Source: a bacterium (GTDB lineage: Bacteria; CLD3; SB21). Taken from it: a stretch of 29,712 nucleotides of DNA. The DNA is taken from NCBI GenBank assembly GCA_013360215.1, contig JABWCP010000034.1, positions 1-29,712 on the forward strand. The letters run 5' to 3'. The stretch's first letter is position 1. Every line of letters starts with the position of its first letter. Under the pieces are notes generated by a model. The model saw only the letters and a program-made list of their open reading frames with translations, searched no databases and had not been told where the DNA came from. Below are positions 14,944 through 29,712 of the stretch, piece after piece. Position numbers and translations under genes: made by a program.

Positions 14944-15040
14944 CAAAAAATCTGATTTACTATATCCGATCCGGGATGTACATTGATCGGCACTTCTTTG
15001 GTTACACATTCTGTAGTTCTCATCTAAACAAATATTACAC

Positions 15041-16486
15041 ATGACCACCGATATCAAACGTTTGTATATCAACGGTTCATGGATTGACGGTGGCGATACG
15101 TTTGCCAATATCAATCCGTCCGATACGTCCGACCTGATCGCTCATTATGCCGTCGCCACGGCCGATCATGTACATGATGCCGTCGCATCCGCCAAACAAG
15201 CTTTCCCCGCATGGTCGCTTTCCACTCCGCAACAACGGTTTAATATTCTCGACGCCGTTGGTGGTGAAATTTTAGCACGGCAAGATGAACTAGGCCGTTT
15301 GCTGTCGCGAGAAGAAGGAAAAACATTGCCCGAAGGAATCGGCGAAGTGGTACGCGCCGCGATGATATTCAAATTTTTTGCCGGAGAAGCTCTGCGTGCA
15401 GGTGGCGAACGCATGGCCTCCGTACGACCGGGGGTTATGGTAGATATGATGCGCGAACCGCTCGGTGTCGTCGGACTCATCACGCCATGGAATTTTCCGA
15501 TCGCAATACCGGCGTGGAAAATAGCCCCGGCATTAGCATTCGGTAACTGCGTCGTTTTTAAACCGGCTGAATTAGTCCCCGGTTGTGCATGGGCTTTGAC
15601 CGAAATTTTACACAAAGCTGGAATTCCCGCCGGTGTGTTTAACTTACTCATGGGCAAAGGATCTGTCATCGGTCGTACGATCGTTGAGCATCCCGATGTA
15701 AATGCCATTAGCTTTACCGGCTCCGTCGGTGTCGGACGACAGGTTGCGGCACAGTGTGCGGCACGTTTGGCCAAAGTACAACTGGAAATGGGAGGGAAAA
15801 ATCCTCTCGTAATCTTAGATGATGCCGATCTGTCCGTCGCCGTCAACGCCGCCGTACAAGGTGCCTATTATTCCACAGGCCAGCGATGCACGGCGTCAAG
15901 CCGCCTTATCGTGACCGAAGGTATTCATGATGCATTTGTGAAAGCTCTGACGGACAAACTTCAAACCCTGCGCATAGATGATGCATTGGCGCAAGGCACG
16001 GATATCGGCCCGGTCGTTGATCTGACACAGATGAATAAAGACCTCGAATACATTACTATCGGCGCACAAGAGAATGCACATCTTGCGTTTGGCGGTGTCG
16101 CACTCGAACGCAGCAAAAAAGGTTTTTACCTGCAACCCGCGCTGTTTACAGAGACTACCTCTGCCATGCGAATCAACCGCGAAGAAATTTTCGGCCCGGT
16201 CGCGTCAGTGATACGCGTTAAAAATTATGATGAAGCCTTAGCTATGGCCAACGATACCCCGTTCGGTCTGACGTCGGGTATCTGCACGACTTCGCTTAAA
16301 TTCGCAGAACACTTCAAGCGGCACGCGCAGGCCGGCATGGTGATGATCAATCTGCCCACTGCCGGAGTGGATTATCATGTACCCTTCGGAGGACGCAAAG
16401 GCTCCAGCTATGGGGCGCGTGAACAAGGCACGTATGCACGCGAATTTTATACAACAGTAAAAACGGCATATACCTTTGCGGGGTAA
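15041..16486 (+). CDS. NAD(P)+-dependent aldehyde dehydrogenase, probable alpha-ketoglutaric semialdehyde dehydrogenase
   Basis: 481 aa. Catalytic Glu in LEMGGKNP and catalytic Cys in TGQRCTASSR. GSVGVG NAD-binding motif. Position in the Hyp cluster. Confidence 0.75.
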   Translation: MTTDIKRLYINGSWIDGGDTFANINPSDTSDLIAHYAVATADHVHDAVASAKQAFPAWSLSTPQQRFNILDAVGGEILARQDELGRLLSREEGKTLPEGIGEVVRAAMIFKFFAGEALRAGGERMASVRPGVMVDMMREPLGVVGLITPWNFPIAIPAWKIAPALAFGNCVVFKPAELVPGCAWALTEILHKAGIPAGVFNLLMGKGSVIGRTIVEHPDVNAISFTGSVGVGRQVAAQCAARLAKVQLEMGGKNPLVILDDADLSVAVNAAVQGAYYSTGQRCTASSRLIVTEGIHDAFVKALTDKLQTLRIDDALAQGTDIGPVVDLTQMNKDLEYITIGAQENAHLAFGGVALERSKKGFYLQPALFTETTSAMRINREEIFGPVASVIRVKNYDEALAMANDTPFGLTSGICTTSLKFAEHFKRHAQAGMVMINLPTAGVDYHVPFGGRKGSSYGAREQGTYAREFYTTVKTAYTFAG

Positions 16487-16488
16487 CT

Positions 16489-17127
16489 ATGAAAGTCAGT
16501 CTCACCGATCAGGCCTACGATAAAATCGAAGAGATGCTCGTCACGTTAAAATTCAAACCCGGAACGATCATATCCGAACCTGAAATCATCGAACGGATCG
16601 GCATGGGGCGCACTCCGGTCCGCGAGGCTTTATTGCGATTGGGCAAGGAACACATGATCAAAGCCATTCCGCGCAAAGGCATTTATATCAACGAAATCCA
16701 CATCACCGATCACATCGCGTTGATGGAAACGCGTCGGGCACTGGAACGCATTATTGCTATGCGTTCGGCCAATCGCGCTACGGCGGAACAGAAAAAAGAA
16801 CTGACCCGCCTCTCGCAACGTATTGTGGATGCCGCGAAAAAAAATGATATCGAAACGTTCATTCATGCCGACCATGCGTTTGACCTTATCATCAGTGAAG
16901 CCTGTCGCAATCCGTATGCCTCCGAAGCCTGTGCTTCGCTTCGCGCGCATTGCCGACGCTTCTGGTATCGTTTTCATCATGATCAGGATTTGGTAACTTC
17001 CGCTAAACTGCACGCTGAGGTTATGAGTGCTATCGTCGCAGGTAATGAAGTGCGCGCGGGTACCGCCTCCGACAAACTGATGGATTATCTGGATCAGATG
17101 ACGCGCGTTGCGATGAATAAAGGATAA
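16489..17127 (+). CDS. GntR-family transcriptional regulator (FadR subfamily, FCD ligand-binding domain)
   Basis: 212 aa. N-terminal winged HTH (ISEPEIIERIGMGRTPVREALLRLGKEHMI) and all-helical C-terminal domain. Its start is 2 nt after the ALDH stop (TAAcuAUG). Confidence 0.8.
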   Translation: MKVSLTDQAYDKIEEMLVTLKFKPGTIISEPEIIERIGMGRTPVREALLRLGKEHMIKAIPRKGIYINEIHITDHIALMETRRALERIIAMRSANRATAEQKKELTRLSQRIVDAAKKNDIETFIHADHAFDLIISEACRNPYASEACASLRAHCRRFWYRFHHDQDLVTSAKLHAEVMSAIVAGNEVRAGTASDKLMDYLDQMTRVAMNKG

Positions 17128-17204
17128 GAATTAGAATTTAGAATTTAGAATTTAGAATTTAGAATTTAGAATTTAGAATTTAGAATTTAGAATTTAGAAT
17201 TTAG
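17128..17204. repeat. Heptanucleotide tandem repeat (AATTTAG)n: 10 perfect copies plus one degenerate copy (gaattag), 77 bp
   Basis: Read directly: GAATTAG AATTTAG x10. It begins immediately after the GntR stop codon and ends 6 bp before the ATG of the 4-Hyp epimerase gene (17211). Confidence 0.95.
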
Positions 17205-17210
17205 GTCATT

Positions 17211-18212
17211 ATGTCACGACATACATTTTCATGCATTGATGCACATACCTGCGGCAATCCGGTACGCGTTGTTACCAGCGGCGGTCCGGCACTCTTAGGC
17301 GCTAATATGAGTGAACGCCGTCAGCACTTTCTTCGCGAATTCGACTGGATACGTAAAGCGCTTATGTTCGAACCGCGTGGTCACGATATGATGTCAGGCA
17401 GCATTTTTTATCCTCCGATTGATCCGGCCAATGATGTTGCGATATTATTTATCGAAACGAGCGGCTGCCTGCCGATGTGCGGTCATGGCACGATCGGCAC
17501 AGTCACTGTGCTCATCGAGCAACGTTTGATCACGCCGCGCACACCCGGCATCCTCCGCTTGGAAGTTCCCGCCGGTATCGTCGAGGCACATTATACAATC
17601 CAACATAATAAAGTGACCAGTGTTCGCATCGTCAATATCCCCTCGTTCCTCCATTCGCAAAATCTTACCGTCGAATGCCCCGATCTCGGCGAAATCACAC
17701 TGGATGTCGCATACGGTGGTAATTTTTATGCGATCGTGGATCCGCAAAAAAACTTTAAAGGTCTTGAGACGATTTCTGCCGGTGATGTTTTACGATGGAG
17801 TCCGATCGTTCGCCAGCGTATCAACGAAAAATATACTTTCACCCATCCCGAAAATCCCACGATTTGCGGCTGTTCCCATTTACAATGGACGGGCGCTCCG
17901 ACACAAAACGAAGCCCACGCCCGCAATGCCGTATTCTACGGTGATAAAGCAATTGACCGCTCGCCCTGCGGCACAGGCACTTCCGCGCGCATGGCCCAGT
18001 GGGCGGCCAAAGGAAAACTCAAAACCGGCGATACGTTTGTACATGAAAGTATCATCGGAAGTATGTTTCGCGGGCGCGTGGAACGCACAACGCATGTCGG
18101 TGATTACGATGCCATCGTTCCAAGCATCGAAGGATGGGCTTACGTCACAGGTTACAATACGATTTTTATAGATACGGATGATCCCTACGCATACGGTTTT
18201 CAAGTTATGTAA
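17211..18212 (+). CDS. Proline racemase-family enzyme with Cys/Cys catalytic pair: 4-hydroxyproline 2-epimerase (or proline racemase)
   Basis: 333 aa. First catalytic Cys in SGCLPMCGHG (Cys90, nt 17478-80). Second catalytic Cys in DRSPCGTGTSARMA (nt 17967-69). Confidence 0.75.
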   Translation: MSRHTFSCIDAHTCGNPVRVVTSGGPALLGANMSERRQHFLREFDWIRKALMFEPRGHDMMSGSIFYPPIDPANDVAILFIETSGCLPMCGHGTIGTVTVLIEQRLITPRTPGILRLEVPAGIVEAHYTIQHNKVTSVRIVNIPSFLHSQNLTVECPDLGEITLDVAYGGNFYAIVDPQKNFKGLETISAGDVLRWSPIVRQRINEKYTFTHPENPTICGCSHLQWTGAPTQNEAHARNAVFYGDKAIDRSPCGTGTSARMAQWAAKGKLKTGDTFVHESIIGSMFRGRVERTTHVGDYDAIVPSIEGWAYVTGYNTIFIDTDDPYAYGFQVM

Positions 18213-18257
18213 CGGGATACGGTAAACATATAGAAAAAATTTAATTCGGATACGCAA

Positions 18258-19517
18258 ATGAGTTCAAAAAAAACAGATGTCGCCATCATCGGCGGAGGTG
18301 TGATCGGATTATGTACAGCGTATTACCTCAATAAAGCCGGCATCTCGGTTACGATCATCGAAAAAAAACAGCCCGGCTTTGGTTCGTCTTTCGGCAACGC
18401 CGGTCTCATCAGTCCTAGTCATTTCGTTCCTCTGGCGGCGCCGGGTATGGTTGCCAAAGGTCTCAAATGGATGTTTGATGCAGAAAGTCCATTCTATATT
18501 CATCCGCGCCCGGACATTGATCTTATCACATGGCTGTGGAAGTTTATGCGCGCGAGTACCGATAAGCGCATGCGCCCGGCTATGCCGGTATTACGCGATA
18601 TGACATTAGCCAGTCAGCAGCTTTTTCATACCATTGCCAATGAAGAGCGTTTTGATTTTGCTCTGGAACAAAAAGGCCTCATTCTTTTGCATGATACCGC
18701 CGAAGGTGAAAAAGCGCATCATCACGAAGTAGCTTTAGCCAATGAAGTCGGCGTTACGGCACGTATGATCTCGCGGGAGGAGATTCACCAAATGCAACCC
18801 GGCGTAAAAGTGCGCGCCACGGGCGGCGTATTTTTTCCCCAAGACGGGCATCTCATCCCCGATCAGTTTAACGCCAAGCTCACGTCGTTATTGCAAACAC
18901 GCGGTGTGCAGTTTATGAACGAAACCGATGTATTTGGCTTTGTCCCCAACGGCAAAGCGGCGGGACATCTGCGCACCAGCGAGGGTGACATCCATGCGAA
19001 TCAGTATGTCGTGGCGGCCGGCGCATGGACGTCCGATCTGCTCTACGAAATCGGTATTGCACTCCCGGTGCAAGCCGGTAAAGGCTATAGCGTGACCGTT
19101 AAGCGCGACAAGAATAATCTTACGATTCCGATCATTTGTACCGAAGCGCGTGTAGCCATTACCCCAATGGGCGATACGATTCGTTACGCCGGTACGCTGG
19201 AGTTGAGTGGTAACGATCTGACCATCAATCCGCGTCGCGTGAAAGCGATACTCCGGGCCGCAGACCGCTATCTTGAAAATTTTGATGCACAATCGTCGGA
19301 TATACAAACAGCCTGGGCCGGCCTTCGCCCGTGTTCACCGGACGGATTGCCTTTCATCGGCCGATTTAAGCGCACTCCCAACGTAATCGCCGCGACCGGC
19401 CATGCGATGCTCGGTATTACTCTAGGACCGATTACCGGGAAACTGGTCTCTGAAATTGTTACCAATGCACCCCAAACCATTGTATCACCGTTATTGGATG
19501 CAGACCGCTATGCCTGA
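18258..19517 (+). CDS. FAD-dependent oxidoreductase (DadA/DAO-like), probable D-hydroxyproline dehydrogenase
   Basis: 419 aa. N-terminal Rossmann dinucleotide motif VAIIGGGVIGLCTAYYL…IIEK. DAO-family C-terminal motif (GHAMLGITLGP). Confidence 0.75.
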   Translation: MSSKKTDVAIIGGGVIGLCTAYYLNKAGISVTIIEKKQPGFGSSFGNAGLISPSHFVPLAAPGMVAKGLKWMFDAESPFYIHPRPDIDLITWLWKFMRASTDKRMRPAMPVLRDMTLASQQLFHTIANEERFDFALEQKGLILLHDTAEGEKAHHHEVALANEVGVTARMISREEIHQMQPGVKVRATGGVFFPQDGHLIPDQFNAKLTSLLQTRGVQFMNETDVFGFVPNGKAAGHLRTSEGDIHANQYVVAAGAWTSDLLYEIGIALPVQAGKGYSVTVKRDKNNLTIPIICTEARVAITPMGDTIRYAGTLELSGNDLTINPRRVKAILRAADRYLENFDAQSSDIQTAWAGLRPCSPDGLPFIGRFKRTPNVIAATGHAMLGITLGPITGKLVSEIVTNAPQTIVSPLLDADRYA

Positions 19518-20577
19518 AAAAAAATCGGTATTTGAAAAACGCCTGCGCGCTATGCAGCGTTGGGAAGCGCCCGCATCGTGGCGGCGTATCGAAACGATCG
19601 AAGCGCATACCGGCGGTGAACCGCTCCGCATCATCATATCAGGATTACCGCCGATCAAAGGCCAAACCATTCTTCAGAAACGGGCGTACCTCAAGACGCA
19701 TCTTGATCATCTCCGTACGGCGCTGATGTGGGAACCGCGCGGCCATGCCGATATGTACGGTTGTATCATCACTCCGCCGGTGGAAAAAAATTCCGATTTC
19801 GGTGTGATTTTTTTGCATAACGAAGGTTATTCCACCATGTGCGGCCACGGCATCATCGCTGTTACCAAAGCGGCCGTAGAAACCGGACTTATTCATGCAC
19901 GCGGTACGAAAGTCACACTGCGCATTGATTCGCCCGCAGGACTGATCACTTCCATAGCCCAAATCCGGCGCGGCAAAGTGCAATCCGTTCGTTTTCTCAA
20001 TGTTCCATCGTTTGTACAAACTTTGGATGCCGTCGTCGACATACCGGGATTGGGACGCATACGTTATGATCTTGCGTACGGCGGTGCATTTTACGCTTTT
20101 GTGCACGCCGAAGATGCCGGTGTAACGATGGATGCGGCAGGATATCGCGGCCTTATCGAACGCGGCATGATGATCAAACGCGCTGTTATGCGGAGCGTAG
20201 CCATGCAACACCCATTCGAATCGGAGCTCAATTTTTTATACGGTACGATTTTCACCGGCCCGGGACATACGACCGGCGCAGATTCCCGCAATGTCTGTAT
20301 TTTTGCCGACGGCGAAGTGGATCGAAGCCCGACAGGAACGGGAGTCAGCGCGCGAATGGCTATTCACCATGCGCGCGGTGCGCTTCGCACCGGTGAACCG
20401 ATGGCCATCGAAAGCATTACAGGCAGTCGCTTTGTGTGCCGCGTTCATGCGACGACGACGTATGGTAACTACCCGGCGGTGATCCCCGCTATCGAAGGCA
20501 CGGCGCATCTCTGCGGAAAAAGCTCCTGGATTATAGATCCTGCCGATTCGCTGCAGGACGGTTTTTTCTTCCGTTAA
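19510..20577 (+). CDS. Proline racemase-family enzyme with Cys/Thr pair: trans-3-hydroxy-L-proline dehydratase
   Basis: ATG at 19510 overlaps the upstream stop (cuAUGccUGA). An alternative ATG at 19498 (in-frame, 4 codons upstream) is possible. The ORF-track start at 19456 is probably too long. First catalytic Cys retained (GYSTMCGHG). Second catalytic residue is Thr (DRSPTGTGVSARMA, ACA at 20332-34), the known discriminator of T3LHyp dehydratases versus epimerases. Confidence 0.7.
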   Translation: MPEKKSVFEKRLRAMQRWEAPASWRRIETIEAHTGGEPLRIIISGLPPIKGQTILQKRAYLKTHLDHLRTALMWEPRGHADMYGCIITPPVEKNSDFGVIFLHNEGYSTMCGHGIIAVTKAAVETGLIHARGTKVTLRIDSPAGLITSIAQIRRGKVQSVRFLNVPSFVQTLDAVVDIPGLGRIRYDLAYGGAFYAFVHAEDAGVTMDAAGYRGLIERGMMIKRAVMRSVAMQHPFESELNFLYGTIFTGPGHTTGADSRNVCIFADGEVDRSPTGTGVSARMAIHHARGALRTGEPMAIESITGSRFVCRVHATTTYGNYPAVIPAIEGTAHLCGKSSWIIDPADSLQDGFFFR

Positions 20578-20582
20578 AATCC

Positions 20583-21551
20583 ATGCGATTTATTCCAAGC
20601 GACACACTGCGTGAGTTGATCACTATGCCTGAAGCGATAACGGCAATGCAATCGGCATTTTCTGCATTATCCGATGGGTCGGCTGTTGTGCCGCTTCGAA
20701 CGACCCTTGACTTTCCCGGTTCCGACGCCCGTGCGCTGATCATGCCGGCTTATCATTCATCATCTCGGTACTTCACGACCAAAATAGTGACGGTATGTCC
20801 GACCAATGCCGCGCGCCATCTTCCGCTCATCCACGGTACACTGATCGTTACGGACGGATCCACAGGAAAAACACTGGCACTGATGGATGCAGAGTGGATT
20901 ACGGCTTTGCGGACTGGTGCGGCTTCCGGACTGGCCACGGAATGGATGGCTCTTCCCGATGCGCATACATTAGGAGTTTTCGGGACAGGTGCGCAGGCCT
21001 ACGAACAGGTGCGTGGCGTCATGAGTGTACGGAAATTAACACGGATTATTATATTTGGCCGCGATCCCCAAAAAACAACTACGTTTTGTAAAACTGTTTC
21101 AAATCAATTTGCAATTCCTTGTTTTCCCGCTCAAGCGCCGCAAGAGGTTTCCCAATGTGATATCCTCTGCTGCGCAACCAATGCGCATAACCCGGTTTTT
21201 GAAGATAAGTATCTCACGCACGGTACGCACATCAATGGTATCGGCGCATTCAAACCCGCAATGCGTGAAATACCATCAGCGACTATAGCACGCGCTCGCA
21301 TTATCGTAGATCAACGCGCATCCGCATGGCGTGAAGCCGGCGACTTGATCCTCGCTCAAAAAGATGGAGTAGTCGCTGAAGATTGCATTGCCGGCGAAAT
21401 CGGCGAAGTCGTCACGCATAAAACTTCCGGACGTATATCCCGAGAACAAATCACCATCTTCAAGTCCGTAGGTAATGCGATTCAGGATAATGTAATTGCA
21501 TCCATGGCTTATGAACGTGCCCTCAAAGCGGGAATAGGAACGGAGATTTGA
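20583..21551 (+). CDS. Ornithine cyclodeaminase/mu-crystallin-family protein, probable delta1-pyrroline-2-carboxylate reductase
   Basis: 322 aa. OCD/mu-crystallin fold with NAD(P) Rossmann motif GVFGTGAQA. Located 5 bp downstream of the Cys/Thr dehydratase gene. Confidence 0.65.
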   Translation: MRFIPSDTLRELITMPEAITAMQSAFSALSDGSAVVPLRTTLDFPGSDARALIMPAYHSSSRYFTTKIVTVCPTNAARHLPLIHGTLIVTDGSTGKTLALMDAEWITALRTGAASGLATEWMALPDAHTLGVFGTGAQAYEQVRGVMSVRKLTRIIIFGRDPQKTTTFCKTVSNQFAIPCFPAQAPQEVSQCDILCCATNAHNPVFEDKYLTHGTHINGIGAFKPAMREIPSATIARARIIVDQRASAWREAGDLILAQKDGVVAEDCIAGEIGEVVTHKTSGRISREQITIFKSVGNAIQDNVIASMAYERALKAGIGTEI

Positions 21552-21754
21552 ACCTACGATTAGTATTAGAAAACAACTTGTTCATATTCGAAATATATAT
21601 TTGTTTTGACGTGCCGTAGACCATGACCTCATAATTTCCACATGTAACCAACGCTGATGCTAAAAACATGACCTGTATGACCTATACTTAATGGGTTATT
21701 CACGTACGAATAGACCAATTCGGCGAAACCTTTATTCTTATTTATATTTTCGCT

Positions 21755-22363
21755 CTAGCCTATATGAAAAGACGGGAAGTTATTAGGATTAGAACCTTTC
21801 CCACCTTCACCATAATCATGATCTATATTAAATAAGTTATATTTAATTATTCCATACATAACACTTGTTTGTGAGCTGCGCTTCGAGATAATTAATCCGG
21901 GGGAAATACCCGAGGCAAGTTTATCCGTTCGTTCAGAATAAAATAAAAAATAATTAGTATAGTTCAGCAAAAGAGACATTTGCATTTTCGAATTATCAGG
22001 AGTAACTCTATATTTTAACATTCCTCTTAAGCCAAAATCACAACTTTTTATATTCGCACCCAACACAACTTTAGAGAGTAACACCGGTGCGGCATACCCA
22101 CTCCACAAACTTGCCCCTACATTTAGGCGGTCACTTATACCATACGATAACCTAGGTTCAAGTATTGCGGGTGTAATCGCTTTTACAAAATGATCTCTTG
22201 GTTTTTTTGACCATTCTTCTGGACCACCTGAAGCGCTAGTCAGTACACTGAATTTCCCACGATTTAATGTTTCCGCATCTTGGTGTTCAATTATACTTAT
22301 ACCGCCACAACTAATTTGAGGTAAGGAAAAAATAATTATACAGCATTTAACAATTTTATTCAT
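21755..22363 (-). CDS. Secreted hypothetical protein, outer-membrane beta-barrel-like
   Basis: 202 aa. Signal peptide plus alternating hydrophobic pattern. The ATG lies 36 bp beyond the distal end of the last repeat element (22399). No matching element follows its stop. Confidence 0.45.
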   Translation of the reverse strand: MNKIVKCCIIIFSLPQISCGGISIIEHQDAETLNRGKFSVLTSASGGPEEWSKKPRDHFVKAITPAILEPRLSYGISDRLNVGASLWSGYAAPVLLSKVVLGANIKSCDFGLRGMLKYRVTPDNSKMQMSLLLNYTNYFLFYSERTDKLASGISPGLIISKRSSQTSVMYGIIKYNLFNIDHDYGEGGKGSNPNNFPSFHIG

Positions 22364-22398
22364 CGTTGCCCCATTTTAATAGAATATAACCGCATGGT

Positions 22399-22590
22399 AC
22401 ATAACGGATCGCGACAATCTGCGATGGTGCGGTATAAGGTTTCGAAAATTTCAAACCACTCGTGTCTCGCGCCACGCTGTATGTGAAGTGCGAACTCGAT
22501 TTATTATTTGACATTATTAAGATTACCCTTAAAATCCCATTTTAAATATTGTACGAGCCCTGAATGAACAGATGGACCGCGAATTATTCG
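22399..22590 (-). repeat. attC-like element copy 1 (degenerate 5' stem arm)
   Basis: acATAACggatcgcgac … cgcgccacg … gaacagatggaccgcgAATTATtcg. It is the most distal copy. Confidence 0.5.
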
Positions 22591-23403
22591 TTGGACTTAT
22601 CAGTTTTTAATAATTTTGTCCTTACGAAAATCTTGTAAGATGCTTTTCTGAAGAAAAACCCGTCACCTTTAGTGAATACACCATCGGAATAAATGGACAT
22701 TTAATGCTCCATATTCTATTTTGATAGTTTTGATTGCATATTTGGCTTCCCATATCACTGCATCACTTTTAATCGGTTGCAACATAAATAAAAAAAACTT
22801 CTTGTTTCTCTACCGCTAGAAGTGATACTTATGAAGTAGCGCCGGTATATTTATCTGTATACGTTCTAATTCCAATGTTTTCAATTGCAGTATTATCAGA
22901 TTTTGTATGGTAATAGTCAGCAGTTTCCATACTTAAAATTAGATCTGCACAAACTCGTGTACAATTTCCTCAACTGTTTGACTGATTAATAATCTATTTC
23001 CTTCTATAATCTTTAATTCAATTTGGTAGGTATTTAGCATTTCTTCTAATTTTTTTAAACGCACCATGAAATTCCCTATTTATAAACTCTATCTACATGT
23101 TTACGGGTACTTTTTTATCAGGTAGATCCCACAATTTCTTTAATTAAGATTTAAAATTACCTCGCGCACAGGAAATAACTAAAAATAGAAATGTAAAAAA
23201 AATATTTTTCAAAAGACTTTCAATTTTTAAACGTTCTGTGACGTTTGCATAACTTTTCATAGTATTAGATGCGCCATTGTTCGAGGTATCTTTATCTTTA
23301 AACTTTCTACTCTTGGTACTCGCATCTATCTGAACCGAGATATGTCATCAAATATCGCAGTCTGGGGAAACAAATATAGAGCATTTCGATTTCATTGCCG
23401 TTA

Positions 23404-24030
23404 TCATGGGGTTATGATCGGCGTATCCGCACTGAATAAAAGTCCAATAGAAATTGACCCTGACCATAAATTTTTTAATTGATTTGCCGAAACTGAGAAA
23501 ACAAGAGAAGCCTTGGAAGTCAGTTGTTTAGCGCTTGAAATACCCAAAAAAACACCAGTTTGTGGTTTAGCGCTACGTTCTCCACTCAAAATCATCACAA
23601 CCCCATATCCAAGTTCCGGCGCCAAACGAAAATCATTTCCTTCAGTAATATCTACGGACATACCACCGCTAAAGTTAATTGATTGAGGCATAGCAAATTT
23701 TGCACGTTTCCATTTCAAAAAAGCAAAGTCAACAAAAGGATGTAGGCGCCCTGAGGCAGAATACATTTCAATTTCTGGGGAAAAATAACTAACTTCTTTT
23801 TCATCAGATTTCAATGTTCCACCGACAATGCTGAATTCGATACCTTCTTTGAAGCTAATCGATAAATATCCTGCTTTTGACGAGGAATTTTTACTTCCAT
23901 ACGCATGAACACCGCCCATACTCATGACAGAACCATCACAATGCGAAACTAGCCGCCTTTGAGCGCTAGAAGGGGTGATTAAGAACTGAAGCAGAGCCGT
24001 TAAAAACAATAGTTTTTTCATATTCAACAT
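23404..24030 (-). CDS. Cassette ORF: secreted outer-membrane beta-barrel-like protein (208 aa)
   Basis: Signal peptide MKKLLFLTALLQFLITPSSAQ followed by amphipathic beta-strand pattern. Confidence 0.5.
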   Translation of the reverse strand: MLNMKKLLFLTALLQFLITPSSAQRRLVSHCDGSVMSMGGVHAYGSKNSSSKAGYLSISFKEGIEFSIVGGTLKSDEKEVSYFSPEIEMYSASGRLHPFVDFAFLKWKRAKFAMPQSINFSGGMSVDITEGNDFRLAPELGYGVVMILSGERSAKPQTGVFLGISSAKQLTSKASLVFSVSANQLKNLWSGSISIGLLFSADTPIITP

Positions 24031-24107
24031 TCCAAAGGTTACTAAAATGAGGCATCACTCAAAACATCATGCTACAAATGTTGTACCAGTAAACAAGTAA
24101 ATCCAAT

Positions 24108-24240
24108 CGTCTAATTCTACTTGCTCAACGCGCCACAATGTATTCGAACTGTAAACTCAAATTATTATTTAAAAAACAATCACTTGAAAAATCTTATTTT
24201 CTGTGTTCCGCAATCAGTGAGCAAACATCTGTGGTTATGC
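24108..24240 (-). repeat. attC-like element copy 2 (truncated and degenerate)
   Basis: cGTCTAAttc…cgcgccacaatgtattcgaact…ttattatttaaaaa…cagtgagcaaacatctgtgGTTATGC. It aligns to the 3' two-thirds of copy 10. Confidence 0.4.
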
Positions 24241-24432
24241 TATTCAATGCTGCTTTGATTTAGTATCCAAACAATAATCCACATTCAACTGCCTCAACAA
24301 ATCTGTTTTTATGATTCCTTAATGATATCAATATTTTATGTTTTTTTATCATTAACATTGACTTTTTCTATCTTTCCATAATTCCAAGCCCAAAAGTACT
24401 CCCAATATTGGCATTTGATTACCATTAAACGT

Positions 24433-24553
24433 ATATAACTGTAGCGGCATGCTGCAAGTAACTATTATTTGTTAAAACTTTAACCATTCCTTGTAAAAAC
24501 CTTACTTTCAATACTTCACGAGGAGCATGCGAACAGATGGGTGCGGGTTAGAG
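24433..24553 (-). repeat. attC-like element copy 3 (short variant lacking the central hairpin)
   Basis: ATATAAC-tgtagcggcatgctgcaagtaactattatttgttaaaac…tactttcaatacttcacgaggagcatgcgaacagatgggtgcgGGTTAGAG. Confidence 0.5.
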
Positions 24554-24679
24554 ACATTACAGATTTATTTATTCATCTCATTTTTTTGCAGCTGTTGCAA
24601 TATTCAATCCTGGGGCTAAATTAGCACCTATCACAGCTCGTTGCGGCCAATGATTTGGATCTGAACCAATTCATTGTTT

Positions 24680-24925
24680 TCATAGATTATAAAAAACGCC
24701 ACGGCTTTCTATACGACTCAATATAATTTGTAATGATAGAATATGAGTTTTGTGCGAACCGGTCTCTTCCAATGGCTTTTCAAGTTGATATAAACACGCC
24801 TCAACTTCTTTGTCAAAATCTGGAATTTTAGCTACTGTCGATACAACCCATATAATATTGTCATGCGAAACCATTCGCGAGCGACCAGGCACACTTGCGT
24901 TCCATCTTTTAATTTTATTTTCCAT
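24680..24925 (-). CDS. Cassette ORF: hypothetical protein (81 aa)
   Basis: Only ORF in the 24554..24993 cassette. Start is 70 bp from the upstream element end. Confidence 0.4.
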   Translation of the reverse strand: MENKIKRWNASVPGRSRMVSHDNIIWVVSTVAKIPDFDKEVEACLYQLEKPLEETGSHKTHILSLQIILSRIESRGVFYNL

Positions 24926-24993
24926 TCAATCCTGTCGACAGCAATATATTACTCTATCAATTTAATCAGCTTTTGTTAATTAGTATTGAAGCT

Positions 24994-25182
24994 AAAAGTC
25001 TTCGGTATCCACGGTTCTGTAGCGGAGGTATTTAAAAACTTCAAATCTCTCGCGCCTCACGCCACAGTATCGGCACAATGCGGGTTACAATTATTTGCTA
25101 AAATTCTAATCAGTATCTATAAAAATCTTATTATCCATATTCTACGAGCATCGTGCGAACGGATCACTAGAAGATTAGACGC
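24994..25182 (-). repeat. attC-like element copy 4 (degenerate ends)
   Basis: …cggtatccacggttctgtagcggaggta…ctctcgcgcctcacgccacagtatcggcacaatgcgggttacaattatttg…ctacgagcatcgtgcgaacggatcac…GATTAGAC. Abuts the stop of ORF 25191..25757. Confidence 0.5.
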
Positions 25183-25190
25183 ACATCAAT

Positions 25191-25757
25191 TTATTTCAAT
25201 TTCAATCTCAAACCAATTCCTAGTGCAACATGGTTATATTTTATGTTCATCTTCTCATCCTCAAACTTCCATCGCGCTTTATGCCGTTGATAACCAATAT
25301 CAAAATTTAAAAAAAAGAAGTTTAAACCCGTAGAAATCCCAAAATATGAACCATCTTTGATCGTTCCTCCCCCTTCATAAGAAACATTATTAGATATTAA
25401 TGAAACCCCATATTGAAAGCCAAAATACACGTGGTTCATGTGGTCCGATAACTTAATTTGCAGGGCACCATAAAATGGTCTTACGCTAAATTTTCCTCCC
25501 CATCTTTTAGTCGCCATTGTGGTACTTTTGCTCATACCGCCACCTATAATAAAATATTTGTTTACCGGAAAGAGCATTTCACCTGAAAATTGTATTGAAT
25601 GTACTTTCTCAGTTAATGGCTCTTTTAAATCCCAAAAGTTTGTTGACTCTGATATATGTTTTCCATCAATATCTTTTGAGATTCTTAAAAAGATTTCTTG
25701 AGCATTGATTGAAGATGCTAAAGATGCGATTAAAAGTGTCGAGATTACTCTATTCAT
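25191..25757 (-). CDS. Cassette ORF: secreted outer-membrane beta-barrel-like protein (188 aa)
   Basis: Signal peptide MNRVISTLLIASLASSINAQE. Alternating hydrophobic residues. C-terminal …ALGIGLRLKLK. Confidence 0.5.
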   Translation of the reverse strand: MNRVISTLLIASLASSINAQEIFLRISKDIDGKHISESTNFWDLKEPLTEKVHSIQFSGEMLFPVNKYFIIGGGMSKSTTMATKRWGGKFSVRPFYGALQIKLSDHMNHVYFGFQYGVSLISNNVSYEGGGTIKDGSYFGISTGLNFFFLNFDIGYQRHKARWKFEDEKMNIKYNHVALGIGLRLKLK

Positions 25758-25793
25758 TCTTAGTTTTAAATATAAACATGCAAATTGATGTGC

Positions 25794-25960
25794 GTCTAAC
25801 GTTGCCTGTATCTGCGGTGCTGCGGCGTGGGGTATCTGAAAATTTTCGACTATTAGCCCCTCGCACCGCGATATGTGCCGAGACGCGTGCCCAGCTATCG
25901 TATCCGGGAGAATCTAATATTACACGTATCGAGATCGCTGCCGCTATCATGGAGTTAGGC
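25794..25960 (-). repeat. attC-like element copy 5 (textbook ends: GCCTAAC proximal and GTTAGAC distal on the cassette strand)
   Basis: + strand: GTCTAACgttgcctgtatctgcggtgctgcggcgtgggg…cccctcgcaccgcg…GTTAGGC. GTTAGGC at 25954-60 lies 5 bp from the stop (25947-49) of ORF 25947..26417. The interior is divergent from the other copies while the stem is retained with indels. Confidence 0.6.
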
Positions 25961-26417
25961 GTCTGCACAGCGCTTTTATTTTAAAAATATCACATAAATT
26001 AAACTTTGATTCATCAAAATCATTGTACTTATACTCTGCAAAAACAGCAATTTTTTGTTTGCCAACTAAAATACTATCAATATATAATGTATTATTTGTA
26101 ATACTAAACTCTACTCCTGAATCAAATGTATTTTCTTCGCTATTCCAACTCCTTAATAAACCATTTTCAACTTTATACGAGGTCTCCCCTTCATAATCAA
26201 TACAATCACCCTCATCATCATAACTCCATTCTTTTTGAGTATCGGCTGTAAACTGCATGTAAAATTCGCCCTCGTAAAGAGACTTGTTTTGCTTGTATAA
26301 CTTCCATTTTGTATTTGGAATAGATGCAATGTTGTTTTCTTTATCATCACTACAGGCTTGCAAAGCACTAAAAATTATAACGATTGTTGCGAGGCTTTTG
26401 ATAAGGAACGACTTCAT
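25947..26417 (-). CDS. Cassette ORF: lipoprotein (156 aa)
   Basis: Signal peptide with lipobox (FSALQACSD). Confidence 0.5.
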   Translation of the reverse strand: MKSFLIKSLATIVIIFSALQACSDDKENNIASIPNTKWKLYKQNKSLYEGEFYMQFTADTQKEWSYDDEGDCIDYEGETSYKVENGLLRSWNSEENTFDSGVEFSITNNTLYIDSILVGKQKIAVFAEYKYNDFDESKFNLCDIFKIKALCRRLTP

Positions 26418-26517
26418 ACAATCTCCTAATTTAAAACTATTTATATAGTGGAATTTCGATCATAAATACATTTGAGTATGTGTTTAGTAAATGGATTGGC
26501 GGTCAATGCTGCATGAC

Positions 26518-26708
26518 GCCTAACGGTCTCCGGTATCTGCGGTGCTGTGGCGCGAGGTATATGAAAAACTCAAACCTCTCGTACCTCGCTCCACAGTATC
26601 GGCACGATGCGAGTTACAATTATCGTTAGAAATCTAATCATTACCTACAAAAACCCTGTTTTCAATAATCTAAGAGCAGCAAGCGAACGGATGGGCCGCG
26701 TGTTATTC
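26518..26708 (-). repeat. attC-like element copy 6
   Basis: GCCTAACggtctccggtatctgcggtgctgtggcgcgaggta…cctcgctccacagtatcggcacgatgcgag…ctaagagcagcaagcgaacggatgggccgcgtGTTATTC. It is 18 bp from the stop of ORF 26726..27253. Confidence 0.6.
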
Positions 26709-26725
26709 GAAGACCCGCGTTCACT

Positions 26726-27253
26726 TTACGAATTATCTTGCCTGATCCACCAACTGCTGAGAATAGGAAGCATCACGATCTGACCCACGGCGGCCCAGAC
26801 ACCCGGTAAAAGTGCGACTTCAAAGTATTCAACAGCGTTTGACTCAGGCACATAAGTCAAGAGAGCACAGACAATAAATGCTATTCTTCCAAAGATTAGA
26901 CCCATCAATACACAAGCAAACTTATTTATGCTTGTTTTTTCTCGCATCAATCCTATTGACAATCCATATATCATAAGTTCAACCGTCATTGACGGTAAGA
27001 TACTAGGCAATGGATAACCAGAAACAATATAACTGAGTATTGGTGCAAAAATGCCTGCAATTGTTCCTGCACGCCAACCGTATACCAAGCCAGCTAAAAT
27101 GATTGGCCAATGCATCGGTAGCATTATTCTTACCGGTGCACCAATGAAATGCATTCCTATTGGCAATAGAACGGCGACCAAAACAAATATGATTTGTAGA
27201 GTGTATGCTTTCACTCCTTGCAAAGCTAAGGTCTGTGCTTCACTTGCTGACAT
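26726..27253 (-). CDS. Cassette ORF: small polytopic membrane protein (ECF-transporter S-component/BioY-like, tentative)
   Basis: 175 aa with ~5 hydrophobic helices. Gly-rich helix motif AGLVYGWRAGTIAGIFAPILSYIVSGYP resembles S-component signatures. Confidence 0.4.
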   Translation of the reverse strand: MSASEAQTLALQGVKAYTLQIIFVLVAVLLPIGMHFIGAPVRIMLPMHWPIILAGLVYGWRAGTIAGIFAPILSYIVSGYPLPSILPSMTVELMIYGLSIGLMREKTSINKFACVLMGLIFGRIAFIVCALLTYVPESNAVEYFEVALLPGVWAAVGQIVMLPILSSWWIRQDNS

Positions 27254-27303
27254 GCAATCCTTTCTATCTCTTTTTAGGGATTAAATTGTGTTAAGCGGCT
27301 TTC

Positions 27304-27494
27304 GGATAACGGTCTCCGGTATCCGCGGTGCTGTGGCGCGAGGTACCTGAAAACATAAAATCTCTCGTGCCTCGCGCCACAGTATCGGCATGCTGCGAGT
27401 TACAATTATTTATTAGAAGTCTACTCATTACCTATAAAAAGCTTATTTTCAACACTCTACGAGCATCGTGCGAACGGATCACCGGATGGTTATC
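27304..27494 (-). repeat. attC-like element copy 7
   Basis: GGATAACggtctccggtatccgcggtgctgtggcgcgaggtacctgaaaac…cctcgcgccacagtatcggcatgctgcgag…gaacggatcaccggatgGTTATC. Followed by only 102 bp before copy 8. Confidence 0.6.
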
Positions 27495-27596
27495 ACCTTC
27501 ACAAGCCATTAATCCAAATAATAATATCACAAGTAGGTTGGAAAAATAGAATCTCATAAAATCCTCTCTTAGTTTTATTAGAAATTGAGAGCTATC

Positions 27597-27789
27597 AGAT
27601 AACGGTTCGCGACTATCTGCGGTGCTGTGGCGCAGGGTACCTGAAAACTTTTACTATTAGTTCCCTGCGCCACAGTATCGGCATGCTGCGAGTAACTATT
27701 ATTTATTAAAAATCTAATCATTCTTTGTAAAAAGCCTACTTTCAATACTCTACGAGCAGCATGCGAACAGATGGGTCGCGTTTTATATG
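27597..27789 (-). repeat. attC-like element copy 8 (stem with compensatory changes GCAGGG/CCCTGC)
   Basis: AGATAACggttcgcgactatctgcggtgctgtggcgcagggtacctgaaaac…ccctgcgccacagtatcggcatgctgcgag…cagcatgcgaacagatgggtcgcgTTTTATATG. Confidence 0.6.
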
Positions 27790-27826
27790 TCATTGCGCTA
27801 TATTATTTTGATCAACAATCATTTTT

Positions 27827-28261
27827 TCATTCATTTAAGAATCTAAGACGAAACACCCTTTCTCCAGTCTGCTCATGTGTCTTTTCAGCGACAAATCTGA
27901 ATCCGTACTTTGCATAGAATTTGCGTCCAACTATATTTTTTTCAAAGACTTCAACAATCAACTCATTGTGAAATTCGAGTGCTTTATCTACCAACATTTT
28001 CCCAAAATTCTTCCCAATATGAGTAGGCTGAAGAAATAGACCTCCAATTTCATTTTGAATCAGCGAAACAAATCCAACAACAACACCATCAACCTCAATT
28101 ACCCACGTTTCCACATTTGGTAGATAAAGATCACGAACATTTTTCTTTTCTTGTGCTTGAAAATCTTCAGACAAGAACGGATGAGCTAAACATTGGGCAT
28201 TTTCCCATGCAGAGAGTACCGCAGATAAATCTGATTCTCTATATTTTCGAATTGAAATCAC
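27827..28261 (-). CDS. Cassette ORF: GNAT-family N-acetyltransferase (144 aa)
   Basis: Acetyl-CoA-binding motif A region (VVGFVSL…IGKNFGKMLVDKAL) and C-terminal FYAKYGF typical of GNAT. Confidence 0.7.
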   Translation of the reverse strand: MISIRKYRESDLSAVLSAWENAQCLAHPFLSEDFQAQEKKNVRDLYLPNVETWVIEVDGVVVGFVSLIQNEIGGLFLQPTHIGKNFGKMLVDKALEFHNELIVEVFEKNIVGRKFYAKYGFRFVAEKTHEQTGERVFRLRFLNE

Positions 28262-28317
28262 TTTTCACTCCATAAATTAACAACATTACAACAATAATTT
28301 CAAAAATGGGCAATGGC

Positions 28318-28508
28318 ATATAACGGTTCGCGACTATCTGCGGTGCTGTGGCGCAGGGTATATGAAAACTTTTACTATTAGTTCCCTGCGCCACAGTATC
28401 GGCATGCTGCGAGTACAATTATTTATAAACAATTTATCCATTCCTTGTAAAAACCCTACTTTCAATACTCTACGAGCAGCATGCGAACAGATGGGTCGCG
28501 GGTTATGC
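28318..28508 (-). repeat. attC-like element copy 9 (near-identical to copy 8)
   Basis: ATATAACggttcgcgactatctgcggtgctgtggcgcagggtatatgaaaac…ccctgcgccacagtatcggcatgctgcgag…gatgggtcgcggGTTATGC. It is 15 bp from the stop of ORF 28523..28972. Confidence 0.6.
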
Positions 28509-28522
28509 GTGGTGATGCTTCA

Positions 28523-28972
28523 TTAAGCATTAAATTCAGTTAACTTCTCTTTATCATACCATATCCTATATCTTTCCGGCACTAGTAAATTAACATAAGT
28601 AACAATTGAATCGATTTGCGGTGAATAATAGTTACTTACATGTGTCTGATACTTCTTTTTTTTCTTCGTAAAAGAAAATGATAGCTGCAATCCATCTTGT
28701 ACGGAGGAATTTCTATAATTGCTAAAGAACATATTCGTATCCAAGTTACATAAATAATTTAAGTATGGTGAGTCACTAAATTTTCGGCACCACACAATTT
28801 TAGGCTTTGAATCAATTTCGCCATATGATTCGATTACTGTTACACTATTCTCAAAAATTCTATAAGTGTAACCATCGCCTGTTGAATAATCGGCATTGTA
28901 AATGGATAGATAGGTGCTTCTGTTTGCACATCCACTCATAATTACTAATACAAATATTGAAACAAACTTCAT
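28523..28972 (-). CDS. Cassette ORF: lipoprotein (149 aa)
   Basis: MKFVSIFVLVIMSGCANRS signal peptide with lipobox. Confidence 0.5.
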   Translation of the reverse strand: MKFVSIFVLVIMSGCANRSTYLSIYNADYSTGDGYTYRIFENSVTVIESYGEIDSKPKIVWCRKFSDSPYLNYLCNLDTNMFFSNYRNSSVQDGLQLSFSFTKKKKKYQTHVSNYYSPQIDSIVTYVNLLVPERYRIWYDKEKLTEFNA

Positions 28973-28997
28973 ACAAATTCTTTCAAAGCATCATCAC

Positions 28998-29200
28998 GCC
29001 TAACGGCACGCCATAGGCGATGTGTCGTGGCGCGAGGTATCTGAAAACTTACACCTACTCGTTCCTCGCGCCACGATATATGCGAACTGCGAGCCTAATT
29101 TATTATTTAAAAATGATACATTCACCTGTAAAAACCCTATTTTCAATACCCTGCGAGCAGTGAGTGAACGCCTGTGGCGATGTTATCTGAGGCTTGAGGC
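28998..29200 (-). repeat. attC-like element copy 10
   Basis: GCCTAACggcacgccataggcgatgtgtcgtggcgcgaggta…cctcgcgccacgatatatgcgaactgcgag…cctgtggcgatGTTATCTGAGGCTTGAGGC. Stop of ORF 29203..29673 is 3 bp beyond it. Confidence 0.6.
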
Positions 29201-29202
29201 GA

Positions 29203-29673
29203 TTAATCCACAACTTTAATATCCCCATAACTAGTGTAAATCGTATTACCATGCTTAAATTTAAAAACACATCTGTATACACATCTGTATAGCCCATTCG
29301 AAATTCGATCTCCATCATCTTTATTCAAATCCCAAATGATACTATGAAACCCTTGAGACATAAACTGATCATCCATTAGGTATCTGACAATTCGTTTTGA
29401 GCTTTTAATGTACATTGTTACCTTCATTGAGCTGGCAATTTTATACCTGAATTCGATTGGACCATTGGTAGGATTCGGAAAGGCTGCAGCAACTTCAGGC
29501 GCACTAATTACTGATTCACCTTTAATTGTTACGCGCCAATCATCCTCGTCTTCAGAAATTACATCCCCTTGGCTGTCAGTTTCAGTATATCCACTAATTA
29601 CATCACTGTTGTCACATGCCAGAAGCATCAATAAGATTGTTAACGACATTGTTTTACTAAACATAATTACCAT
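29203..29673 (-). CDS. Cassette ORF: lipoprotein/secreted protein (156 aa)
   Basis: Signal peptide with lipobox (LLMLLACDNSD). Confidence 0.5.
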   Translation of the reverse strand: MVIMFSKTMSLTILLMLLACDNSDVISGYTETDSQGDVISEDEDDWRVTIKGESVISAPEVAAAFPNPTNGPIEFRYKIASSMKVTMYIKSSKRIVRYLMDDQFMSQGFHSIIWDLNKDDGDRISNGLYRCVYRCVFKFKHGNTIYTSYGDIKVVD

Positions 29674-29691
29674 TTAAAAAAATATTAATGC

Positions 29692-29712
29692 GCCTCAAGT
29701 CTCAGATAACGG
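29692..29712 (-). repeat. attC-like element copy 11 (only the distal end is inside the window)
   Basis: GCCTCAAGtCTCAGATAACgg is the inverse complement of the terminal GTTATCTGAGgCTTGAGGC of copy 10. It lies 18 bp beyond the ATG (29673) of the preceding cassette ORF. Confidence 0.5.

Follow-up and report, generated by a model that had tools for sequence, protein, structure and literature searches.

Sedentary chromosomal integrons, exemplified by the Vibrio cholerae superintegron with its V. cholerae repeat (VCR) sites and its integrase VchIntIA, carry tandem, mostly promoterless and mutually unrelated open reading frames (ORFs) that read in one direction and alternate with homogeneous imperfect palindromes, the attC sites. 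Their crossover lies at inverse xxTAAC/GTTAxx cores with a G after AAC, their folding is biased to the bottom strand, their G+C content is below that of the host, and the array starts at an attI-like core beside a divergent recombinase gene. Classical attC sites are 57-141 bp long. Here we analyse a stretch of bacterial DNA of 29,712 nt (contig JABWCP010000034.1 of GenBank assembly GCA_013360215.1; hereafter the window), of which positions 22399-29712 form an array that resembles these integrons in all such respects, the recombinase gene with its attI-like core being seen in related loci only, and toxin-antitoxin and restriction-modification cassettes likewise occurring in related arrays. It differs from them in its long sites with a conserved three-way junction, in an R helix that gains 15-20 bp of cassette-specific pairing, in which the 7th base beyond the core is recurrently a G·T wobble or a bulge, and in that the recombinase of related arrays has no IntI-specific insertion. 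The best-supported interpretation is that of an integron-like system in which neither the sites nor the probable integrase fully conform to the features that define integrons; we put at about 68% the probability that 22399-29712 is the integrase-distal part of an integron-like chromosomal cassette array that is likely served by an insertion-less IntI/XerA-like recombinase.

Other described systems share part of this picture. Clusters of attC sites without an integron integrase (CALIN), as reported by IntegronFinder (PMC4889954), are similar in that the window too holds many attC-type sites and no integrase, but its absence here may reflect an assembly break, and related arrays have a recombinase and an attI-like site next to them. 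Arrays whose recombinase lacks the IntI C-terminal signature would probably be classed as CALIN, provided that their sites were recognized. On the CTX phage the enzyme is XerCD, which is of the Xer type and has no I2-like domain; its substrate is a folded single-stranded DNA (ssDNA) stem that imitates a duplex, with no display of extrahelical bases (PMC4792948). An insertion-less enzyme and near-perfect stems with wobbles recur in our case; however, the phage employs the XerCD of its host to place a whole phage genome at dif, whereas here we see a dedicated recombinase, its own attI-like site and many small cassettes. The dif (pdif) modules of Acinetobacter plasmids are likewise gene modules bounded by inverted sites for Xer-type recombinases, but instead of 28-bp XerC-spacer-XerD (11-6-11) duplex sites the present system has structured, strand-biased sites of ~190 nt in a unidirectional array beside a recombinase.

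Results

A single-orientation array of long palindromic sites

A covariance model made from seven copies of the element was scanned over both strands of the window. On the plus strand it matched 22399-22590, 24388-24555, 24990-25181, 26518-26709, 27304-27496, 27597-27789, 28318-28509 and 28998-29189 (E = 1e-13 to 1e-42 across the eight), and it gave a partial match to a copy of a second subtype at 25794-25906 (E = 5e-6) and to a remnant at 24145-24221 (E = 8e-4). Another copy begins at 29690, leaves the window and continues in the contig (L001:1-90), and a diverged second-subtype remnant at ~23215-23400, undetected by the model, was recognized by eye from the sequence. The original prediction for this locus had counted 11 copies of a repeated element; the element is real, and the count becomes ten clear plus two degenerate copies, all in the same orientation and confined to the array. 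The model found no match in window 1-22398, and on the minus strand of the window it gave just weak echoes of the palindromic hairpin. From core to core the copies measure 186-193 nt, the exceptions being one of ~167 nt and one 168-nt deletion derivative, so that the sites do exceed the classical range and stand as a lineage of their own, as had been anticipated.

Nine cassette ORFs of 81-208 aa, all on the minus strand and without significant pairwise similarity, alternate with these sites. In intact units the stop-to-element gaps span 7-37 nt and the element-to-start gaps 25-64 nt, and the ORF at 25947-26417 overlaps its own element. The G+C content of the array is 0.37, against 0.48 in the flanking chromosome. 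With sites on one strand, unrelated ORFs and the fold described below, the predicted integron-type cassette array with homogeneous, VCR-like sites is borne out.

The structure of the site is conserved across sequence subtypes

Folded as plus-strand DNA, the site presents an outermost TAAC/GTTA helix, an internal loop, a ~12-bp helix that is interrupted mid-way, and a three-way junction bearing an 18-bp hairpin and a second hairpin that closes a long A+T-rich loop; VCR sites, too, are known to have a branched terminus (PMC2727003). The arms fall into three subtypes that differ in sequence and keep their pairing: TAAC-GGTT-CGCGAC-T-ATCTG on the 5' side with CAGAT-GG-GTCGCG-G-GTTA on the 3' side in subtype A (28318-28509), TAAC-GGTCT-CCGGT-ATCCG with CGGAT-C-ACCGG-ATG-GTTA in subtype B (27304-27496), and TAAC-GGCA-CGCCA-T-AGGCG with CGCCT-G-TGGCG-AT-GTTA in subtype C (28998-29189).

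Covariation was assessed in an alignment of 31 copies (30 distinct) from the window, from L003, from a relative and from metagenome contigs. Among the 30 distinct copies, 94.5% of the paired cells are complementary, compared with 22-49% when the partners are slid, and both sides have changed in 23 of 42 pairs; the covariation score is 0.234 versus 0.109 for shuffles, none of 500 shuffles reaching 0.234, although these counts give an upper view, the alignment being fitted to the model and the copies being related. Of 27 aligned copies, 24-27 retain the individual TAAC/GTTA pairs. It thus appears to be the structure of the site rather than its sequence that is conserved, as is asked of an attC site. 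An Rfam scan at gathering thresholds returned no matches, which is uninformative because Rfam has no attC family.

The window sites agree with the integron core criterion, R'' (RYYYAAC) and R' (GTTRRRY) with conserved AAC/GTT, and the end motifs GCCTAAC/GTTAGGC and GTCTAAC/GTTAGAC were found where they had been predicted. In classical attC sites, the extrahelical bases are unpaired on the R''-L'' arm and make it 2-3 nt longer (PMC2727003), whereas in the window sites that arm has 17-18 nt and it is the R'-L' arm, with 19-20 nt, that is longer by 1-3 nt. This arm, the one that would be cleaved, carries the spacer, in essence a bulge of 3-4 nt (GGT/GGTT/GGCA). In place of a G/T extrahelical pair, the L helix has on its R'' side no irregularity beyond a single additional base or a T·G wobble, and the G in L'' with a T 6-8 nt further on that marks classical sites is absent. 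The search for 2-3 extrahelical bases suggested at the outset therefore did not reproduce the classical pattern.

Strand asymmetry and position of the crossover

Hairpin 1 contains two conserved G·T pairs (in 27 and 26 of 28 copies), G·T cells outnumber A·C cells by 70 to 27, and the plus strand is the more stable one in 27 of 28 copies. In all 15 copies defined by regular expression the 5' arm carries TAACGG, i.e. a G after AAC, and G follows AAC in most attC R' boxes (PMC2727003). Because of the wobbles, the energy bias and this G, we take the plus strand, complementary to the strand of the ORFs and equivalent to the 'bottom strand' of integrons, to be the probable folding strand.

Further evidence comes from the sequences just outside the cores. 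Across 18 cassettes, the 16 nt outside the GTTA and TAAC cores match each other inversely across the ORF at 65% without gaps (at least 12 of 16 in 11 cassettes; of the remaining seven, five are explained by 1-nt indels), whereas for the flanks on either side of a single in-array site the figure is just 35%. In one cassette the right core was set at 25957 instead of 25954, which lowers its flank match and leaves the conclusion as it is. When the flanks are those of the circular cassette, mini-hairpins reach -19.6, -24.7 and -33.3 kcal/mol, compared with -10.0, -12.3 and -16.5 kcal/mol for in-array flanks, about a twofold gain in stability; the last value of each series belongs to the site at 28998-29189. 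The inner arms, by contrast, pair within each site as it is placed in the array. Since the inner arms pair within the site and the extensions pair across the ORF, exchange must fall between the two, at the TAAC/GTTA core, as in integrons.

The outermost 20 bp shared between the last two copies had been described as an exact inverse. Positions 29183-29202 and 29692-29711 match at 19 of 20, and the lone G/A difference corresponds to a plus-strand G·T wobble. Such a wobble (G on the R'' side opposite T), or an extra base on the R'' side, occurs at the 7th base outside GTTA in most of the cassettes compared, which were that of window 29187-29202 with 29692-29707 and 17 others (from L045, L050, L052, L054, L057 and further contigs); the first Chryseobacterium cassette has it as well. 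This feature could be a strand-discrimination mark.

We also considered a reversed unit, made of an ORF with the site on its other side and recombining through the minus strand. It was rejected because the attI-proximal unit of the related locus L057 (see below) has no site on its attI side and because the last site of the window adjoins chromosome that relatives share; the plus strand is also favoured by the wobbles, the folding energies and the G after AAC. The first two observations imply a unit composed of extension, ORF, complementary extension and site, in which the plus strand would be exchanged.

Related arrays are headed by a recombinase without the IntI-specific insertion

The cassettes read from right to left, which had placed the platform beyond the right edge of the window, and the metagenome contig L057 shows the layout expected there. 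Its array starts with a FolC-like gene, a gene for a 278-aa tyrosine recombinase on the opposite strand, a 122-bp spacer, a first ORF with its site and two more cassettes. The three L057 sites are 91-97% identical to window sites, that of the first cassette being 97% identical to the copy at 28998. The junction, GCGTAAAAC-CTGGC-G/TTATGTGC, is a 9-5-9 dyad with an attI-like core, which presumably resembles the attI1 simple site; the dyad occurs at this junction only, and no 11-6-11 dyad is found at cassette boundaries. The R'' of the first cassette (GCACATAAC) is the inverse of its first bases. A 77%-identical orthologue of the recombinase in L064 (GCA_031402315.1) has the same 85-bp upstream region, including repeated TTCGTTAA-type motifs, and the similarity stops exactly at TAAC, past which lie different palindromic sites and a 1460-aa gene. 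The sites in L064:1-4720 form a different palindrome family of ~100 nt (GCGTTGGAGCAAAATCAAATGTGCTGCAAC...), and the 1460-aa gene, which is AAA_11/AAA_12 helicase-like and makes up the first large unit, far exceeds the usual size of cassette genes.

The L057 recombinase has intact catalytic motifs. Among NCBIfam models, the XerA/'integron integrase' model scores 211 bits against a cutoff of 220, and TIGR02249 scores 197 against 265 in two stretches. The best sequence match among solved structures is VchIntIA (IntI4; E = 1e-36), with residues 17-179 aligned to 17-179 and 206-276 to 249-319, leaving 26 aa where IntI4 has 69; the enzyme thus lacks the IntI-specific insertion, and XerA aligns to it in one piece. 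An AlphaFold model (mean predicted local distance difference test, pLDDT, 89) has no extra helix at the insertion point and finds its best fold matches in VchIntIA and XerA, and all 30 homologues examined are 264-297 aa long. A tyrosine recombinase with the IntI-specific insertion had been expected; this part of the original prediction is not supported, as neither the L057 enzyme nor its homologues at comparable arrays carry it. An extra domain around patch III defines IntI and is necessary for activity according to PMC9668308 (citing Messier & Roy 2001) and PMC4792948. In the integron-like subgroup of Smyshlyaev et al. 2021, the insertion is said to be 'not fully conserved', and no more. The open-access literature yielded no account of cassette arrays headed by IntI-like recombinases that are insertion-less; an earlier report elsewhere is possible.

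Homologues at 51-56% identity head comparable structures. L068/L069 have nine same-strand genes, among them a three-gene unit that includes a restriction-endonuclease gene and has GTTATGCTTAT/ATTAAGCATAAC as its flanks; L070, from the closed genome of Bernardetia sp. OM2101, has the same gene-to-array layout; and in L071:5069-10825, from the cultured isolate Chryseobacterium sp. Leaf404 (LMQM01000001.1), the short recombinase is accompanied by five upstream same-strand cassette genes, each followed by a ~135-nt palindrome (GCTAACGTTTCGGGGCTTTGCG...CGCAAAACCCTTGTTAGC); the product of one of these genes is a beta-lactamase-family protein (PF00144, 485 aa). In L068/L069, L070, L071 and L066, the DNA upstream of the recombinase gene contains palindromic sites whose cores are xAAC/GTTx. 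They separate divergent same-strand genes in the first three, and the L066 contig ends 243 bp upstream of the recombinase gene, within palindromes. On its other side, the recombinase has different housekeeping genes in each context. Out of thousands of homologues, six contexts were retrieved, and all six show the recombinase-array arrangement. L068 holds two paralogous insertion-less recombinases (L068:703-1527 and L068:10001-10828), 52% identical and 9 kb apart on a 542-kb contig with cassette-like genes between them, which may be two adjacent platforms. The L071 site family also occurs in this contig, an unrelated metagenome contig of 29% G+C.

Cassette turnover among relatives

Metagenome-assembled genomes whose cyclodeaminase is >90% identical match window 21552-22495 and 25115-26692 at 97.5%. 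These relatives lack 22495-25115, where they have another ORF or cassette, and they carry a different cassette after the site at 26518. At the counterpart of that site, which is chimeric in the window, the relatives and one metagenome contig show an intact, properly pairing right arm, CACCGGATGGTTATC, followed by the different cassette. Cassette content differs between close strains. The distal copies at the left end of the array are truncated or eroded, and some units are ORF-less.

Beyond close relatives, a scan of 185,579 genomes, one per species, with a 19-nt core gave 22 single matches, about the chance expectation, of which one was true (L003); two matches in Alteromonadaceae were dismissed as coding-sequence coincidences. 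L003, assigned to an 'uncultured Bacteroidota bacterium', is an array end at a contig end in which a toxin-antitoxin pair precedes the site. In metagenomes, a 21-nt junction motif retrieved 12 short contigs, L057 among them, with sites 89-97% identical to those of the window and other cassettes.

Sites and cassettes along the array

We describe the array from right to left, with all sites on the plus strand and all ORFs on the minus strand. At the right edge, 29690-29712 is the left end (cassette-specific extension and TAACGG core) of the copy that the edge of the window truncates; the contig carries more of this copy and ends inside it. The ORF at 29203-29673 (149-156 aa) has a lipoprotein signal start (LLAC) and no family match, and is followed by the subtype-C site at 28998-29189 (188.6 bits). 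The next ORF, at 28523-28972 (149 aa), has a lipoprotein-like start (MSGC), and its neighbour is the subtype-A site at 28318-28509 (209.4 bits), for which the minimum free energy is -40.6 kcal/mol on the plus and -38.3 kcal/mol on the minus strand. The ORF at 27827-28261 encodes a GNAT acetyltransferase of 143-144 aa (Pfam PF00583, E = 1.4e-10), and the subtype-A site next to it, at 27597-27789 (211.7 bits), has a degenerate R'' core with TTTA for GTTA.

The unit at 27497-27596 is the one for which an absence of an ORF had been correctly noted. A lipoprotein signal-peptide start (ATG at 27557, MRFYFSNLLVILLFGLMAC...) runs into the next site, there is no extended inverted repeat (flank match 3/16), and the unit looks like a cassette truncated by recombination between sites. 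It borders the subtype-B site at 27304-27496 (204.4 bits; fold -34.6 versus -30.6 kcal/mol), beyond which the ORF at 26726-27253 encodes an S-component-like membrane protein of energy-coupling factor (ECF) transporters (175 aa; Pfam PF12822, E = 1.2e-10). The site at 26518-26709 combines a subtype-B left arm with a subtype-A-like right arm that does not pair with it, and the window departs from L061 and L030 after 26692. The last codons of the ORF at 25947-26417 (156 aa, lipoprotein-like start) overlap the R'' core of its site, the second-subtype copy of ~167 nt at 25794-25960, which runs from GTCTAAC to GTTAGGC and was partially matched by the model; its left half and hairpin 1 are common to the main family, and its right end is common to the remnant at 23215-23400.

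Further to the left, the ORF at 25191-25757 (188 aa) has a signal peptide, a weak match to outer-membrane beta-barrel proteins and inverted-repeat flanks that agree at 18 of 20 positions (ATTAGACGCACATCAATTTA / CAAATTGATGTGCGTCTAAC). The site at 24990-25181 (182.1 bits) has degenerate cores (CTAAAAG ... ATTAGAC), the ORF at 24680-24925 (81 aa) has no family match, and 24388-24555 (73.5 bits) is the deletion derivative, which lacks the left arm and hairpin 1 and retains hairpin 2 and the right arm to GTTAGAG. At 24040-24250 lies the decayed copy to which the partial match at 24145-24221 belongs, with an eroded left half and the right end GTTATGC. Compared with its closest intact relative, the copy at 28998, its left half shows mainly G-to-A and C-to-T changes, a strongly A+T-directed pattern of decay. 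The ORF at 23404-24030 (208 aa) has a signal peptide, and the right end TGCCGTTATCATGGGGTTATGA of the strongly diverged second-subtype remnant at 23215-23400 resembles TGCCGCTATCATGGAGTTAGGC of the copy at 25794-25960. A decayed cassette interior with ORF fragments of at most 43 aa (22597-23214) separates it from the last, integrase-distal site at 22399-22596 (149.9 bits), which runs from ACATAAC to GTTGGAC and whose left half is 97% conserved in relatives.

Just past this site, a minus-strand ORF of 202 aa at 21755-22363 has no site of its own and is kept beside the ornithine cyclodeaminase gene in relatives (window 21552-22495 corresponds to L030 10970-11912 at 97.5%); most likely it is the original flank of the insertion site and not a cassette. 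Two of the nine cassette ORFs belong to clear families, the GNAT acetyltransferase and the ECF S-component-like protein. A signal peptide or lipobox stands at the start of at least five of the nine, and a weak outer-membrane beta-barrel match was obtained for two; the cassette cargo is biased toward cell-envelope proteins. A defence-system scan of the cassette proteins gave sub-threshold noise alone.

Flanking chromosome and contig end

The left 21.5 kb of the window is ordinary chromosome, with genes for a solute-binding protein, a BNR/sortilin-type protein, an arginase-family protein and an FMN reductase. The sortilin/Vps10 protein with BNR repeats (1059 aa, 4699-7878) is unrelated to the array. 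A hydroxyproline catabolism cluster at 14047-21551, syntenic in relatives, abuts the array end directly and comprises genes for a DHDPS-like protein, an aldehyde dehydrogenase, a GntR/FCD regulator, two proline-racemase-family proteins, an FAD oxidoreductase and, at its end (20583-21551), the ornithine cyclodeaminase. At the other side, the window corresponds in reverse complement to the beginning of contig JAKLJV010000015.1 (GCA_023150995.1), which ends ~70 bp past the window inside another copy, and a second assembly, L025, breaks at the first element copy. The assembly accessions are not mentioned in the open-access papers searched. Because the contig breaks inside a copy, the platform is not visible on it.

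Discussion

By combining a structural model of the repeated site with the recombinase loci found beside the same and related site families, our analysis outlines how cassettes in this array could move. Read on the minus strand, a cassette unit would comprise TTA with a cassette-specific extension, the ORF, the complementary extension with TAAC, and the ~190-nt site ending in G. As plus-strand ssDNA, the site is predicted to form an R-type TAAC/GTTA helix, lengthened by 15-20 bp in the excised circle, followed inward by an unpaired spacer of unequal sides (GGT(T) in the arm that is cleaved versus 0-3 nt opposite), by an L-type helix of 12 bp whose centre holds a T·G wobble or one-base bulge, and by the three-way junction with its two hairpins. 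We propose that a tyrosine recombinase cleaves the 5' arm at AA/C and that the cleaved strand is exchanged either with another folded site (excision) or with the double-stranded attI-like core beside the recombinase gene (insertion), the junction then being resolved by replication. The enzyme would most likely be a recombinase of ~275 aa of the IntI/XerA type without the IntI-specific I2 insertion, and its handling of the substrate may be nearer to that of XerCD on the folded CTX-phage site than to that of an IntI reading extrahelical bases. Homologous recombination between the long, similar sites would add deletions and chimeras, with the platform-distal copies decaying.

Several observations weigh against this interpretation. 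Neither the window nor its contig contains a tyrosine recombinase or an attI, and the assembly of the window may lack the recombinase gene or have left it unassembled; a standard IntI could be encoded elsewhere in the genome. The housekeeping DNA of L057 (L057:1-1489) has a G+C of 0.376, compared with 0.477 for the window chromosome (1-21551), a mismatch that makes L057 probably another organism, a different host sharing the site family. Among the top matches listed, P0045 and P0046 are the only homologues with >57% identity. The covariation counts, as said, are an upper view. Finally, the breakpoints at 22495 and 25115 and the chimeric site at 26518 lie inside sites and not at the core, which is homologous, not site-specific, exchange. 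With sites that are 91-97% identical despite this difference in G+C, the site family, perhaps together with its cassettes, would seem to pass between different hosts.

The unseen platform of the window and the probable foreign host of L057 leave room for an ordinary sedentary integron, in which a standard IntI with its I2 insertion sits on unassembled DNA and the short recombinase is a mere neighbour or a Xer-type housekeeping enzyme. The close fit of the R-box cores to RYYYAAC/GTTRRRY, the G after AAC and the branched terminus known for VCR sites would all be natural in such a system. We nevertheless regard it as unlikely, because the upstream region of the short recombinase, with its dyad core and repeated arm-like motifs, is conserved between 77%-identical orthologues exactly to TAAC, because the gene-to-array arrangement recurs with different housekeeping neighbours and one contig has two paralogues 9 kb apart, and because the extrahelical-base pattern that IntI reads is absent from the sites. 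A CALIN-like relic with no working integrase, reshaped solely by homologous recombination between long repeats, is somewhat less probable again. Breakpoints inside sites, a chimeric site that does not pair, degenerate, truncated or eroded copies throughout 22399-25181 and units that have lost their ORF are what such a relic would leave behind, but the six platform-nearest copies retain paired arms, intact cores and cassette-specific extended repeats with the recurrent wobble, and copies of 91-97% identity in many independent metagenome contigs with different cassettes argue for ongoing turnover.

The size of the recombinase, which is that of a Xer enzyme without the domain linked to single-strand site handling, also raises the question of double-stranded Xer/dif-like recombination in the manner of the Acinetobacter dif modules, with irrelevant inner hairpins; inverted repeats do flank each ORF segment, and the geometry is formally compatible. 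Yet as duplex each site end offers a single arm and cassette boundaries carry no 11-6-11 dyad, covariation preserves the inner hairpins and arms, and duplex recombination would select neither for the excess of G·T over A·C cells (70 to 27) nor for one consistently more stable strand, so that we consider this improbable. That the elements are intergenic, palindromic and downstream of each ORF could in principle mark them as repetitive extragenic palindromic (REP) sequences, miniature inverted-repeat transposable elements (MITEs), transcript 3' structures or terminators unrelated to cassette mobility, which we find scarcely credible. A dispersed repeat of this kind, the alternative raised with the original prediction, is contradicted by the single orientation, by the lack of copies in the 22 kb of adjacent chromosome and in the non-array parts of related loci examined, by cassette polymorphism between strains, and by the exact-core scan of 185,579 species genomes, whose one true match is also an array end. 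In a terminator, the wobble pairs would stand on the template strand, and the mRNA would carry C·A mismatches; nor did Rfam yield a match.

An integron-like array served by a short recombinase may not be peculiar to this locus. Bacteroidota are reported to have almost no integrons (PMC9024848), and we judge the chances evenly balanced that a distinct and widespread class of integron-like platform exists in Bacteroidota and allied bacteria of the Fibrobacteres-Chlorobi-Bacteroidetes (FCB) group, including cultured Chryseobacterium and Bernardetia. Its integrase would lack I2, its sites would rely on wobbles, a lopsided spacer and long R-helix extensions instead of extrahelical bases, and it would be a sister or forerunner of classical integrons that mostly escapes tools depending on the C-terminal signature of IntI.

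Taken on its own, the window offers a cassette array that is well documented and whose family of three-armed sites is unusually long; its interest would be high if the link to the recombinase is confirmed, and the isolates Chryseobacterium sp. Leaf404 and Bernardetia sp. OM2101 make that question testable at the bench. Integron detection relies on the extra domain of IntI and on the attC model, and it is by this standard that Bacteroidota are reported as nearly integron-free. If short IntI/Xer-like recombinases run arrays, integron-type gene capture would be taxonomically wider than surveys show, and a large pool of cassettes would have gone unannotated, with restriction-modification, toxin-antitoxin and beta-lactamase-family genes among the contents of related arrays. 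The I2 domain would then be no prerequisite for cassette arrays, which bears on the origin of integrons from Xer-like ancestors (PMC4792948).

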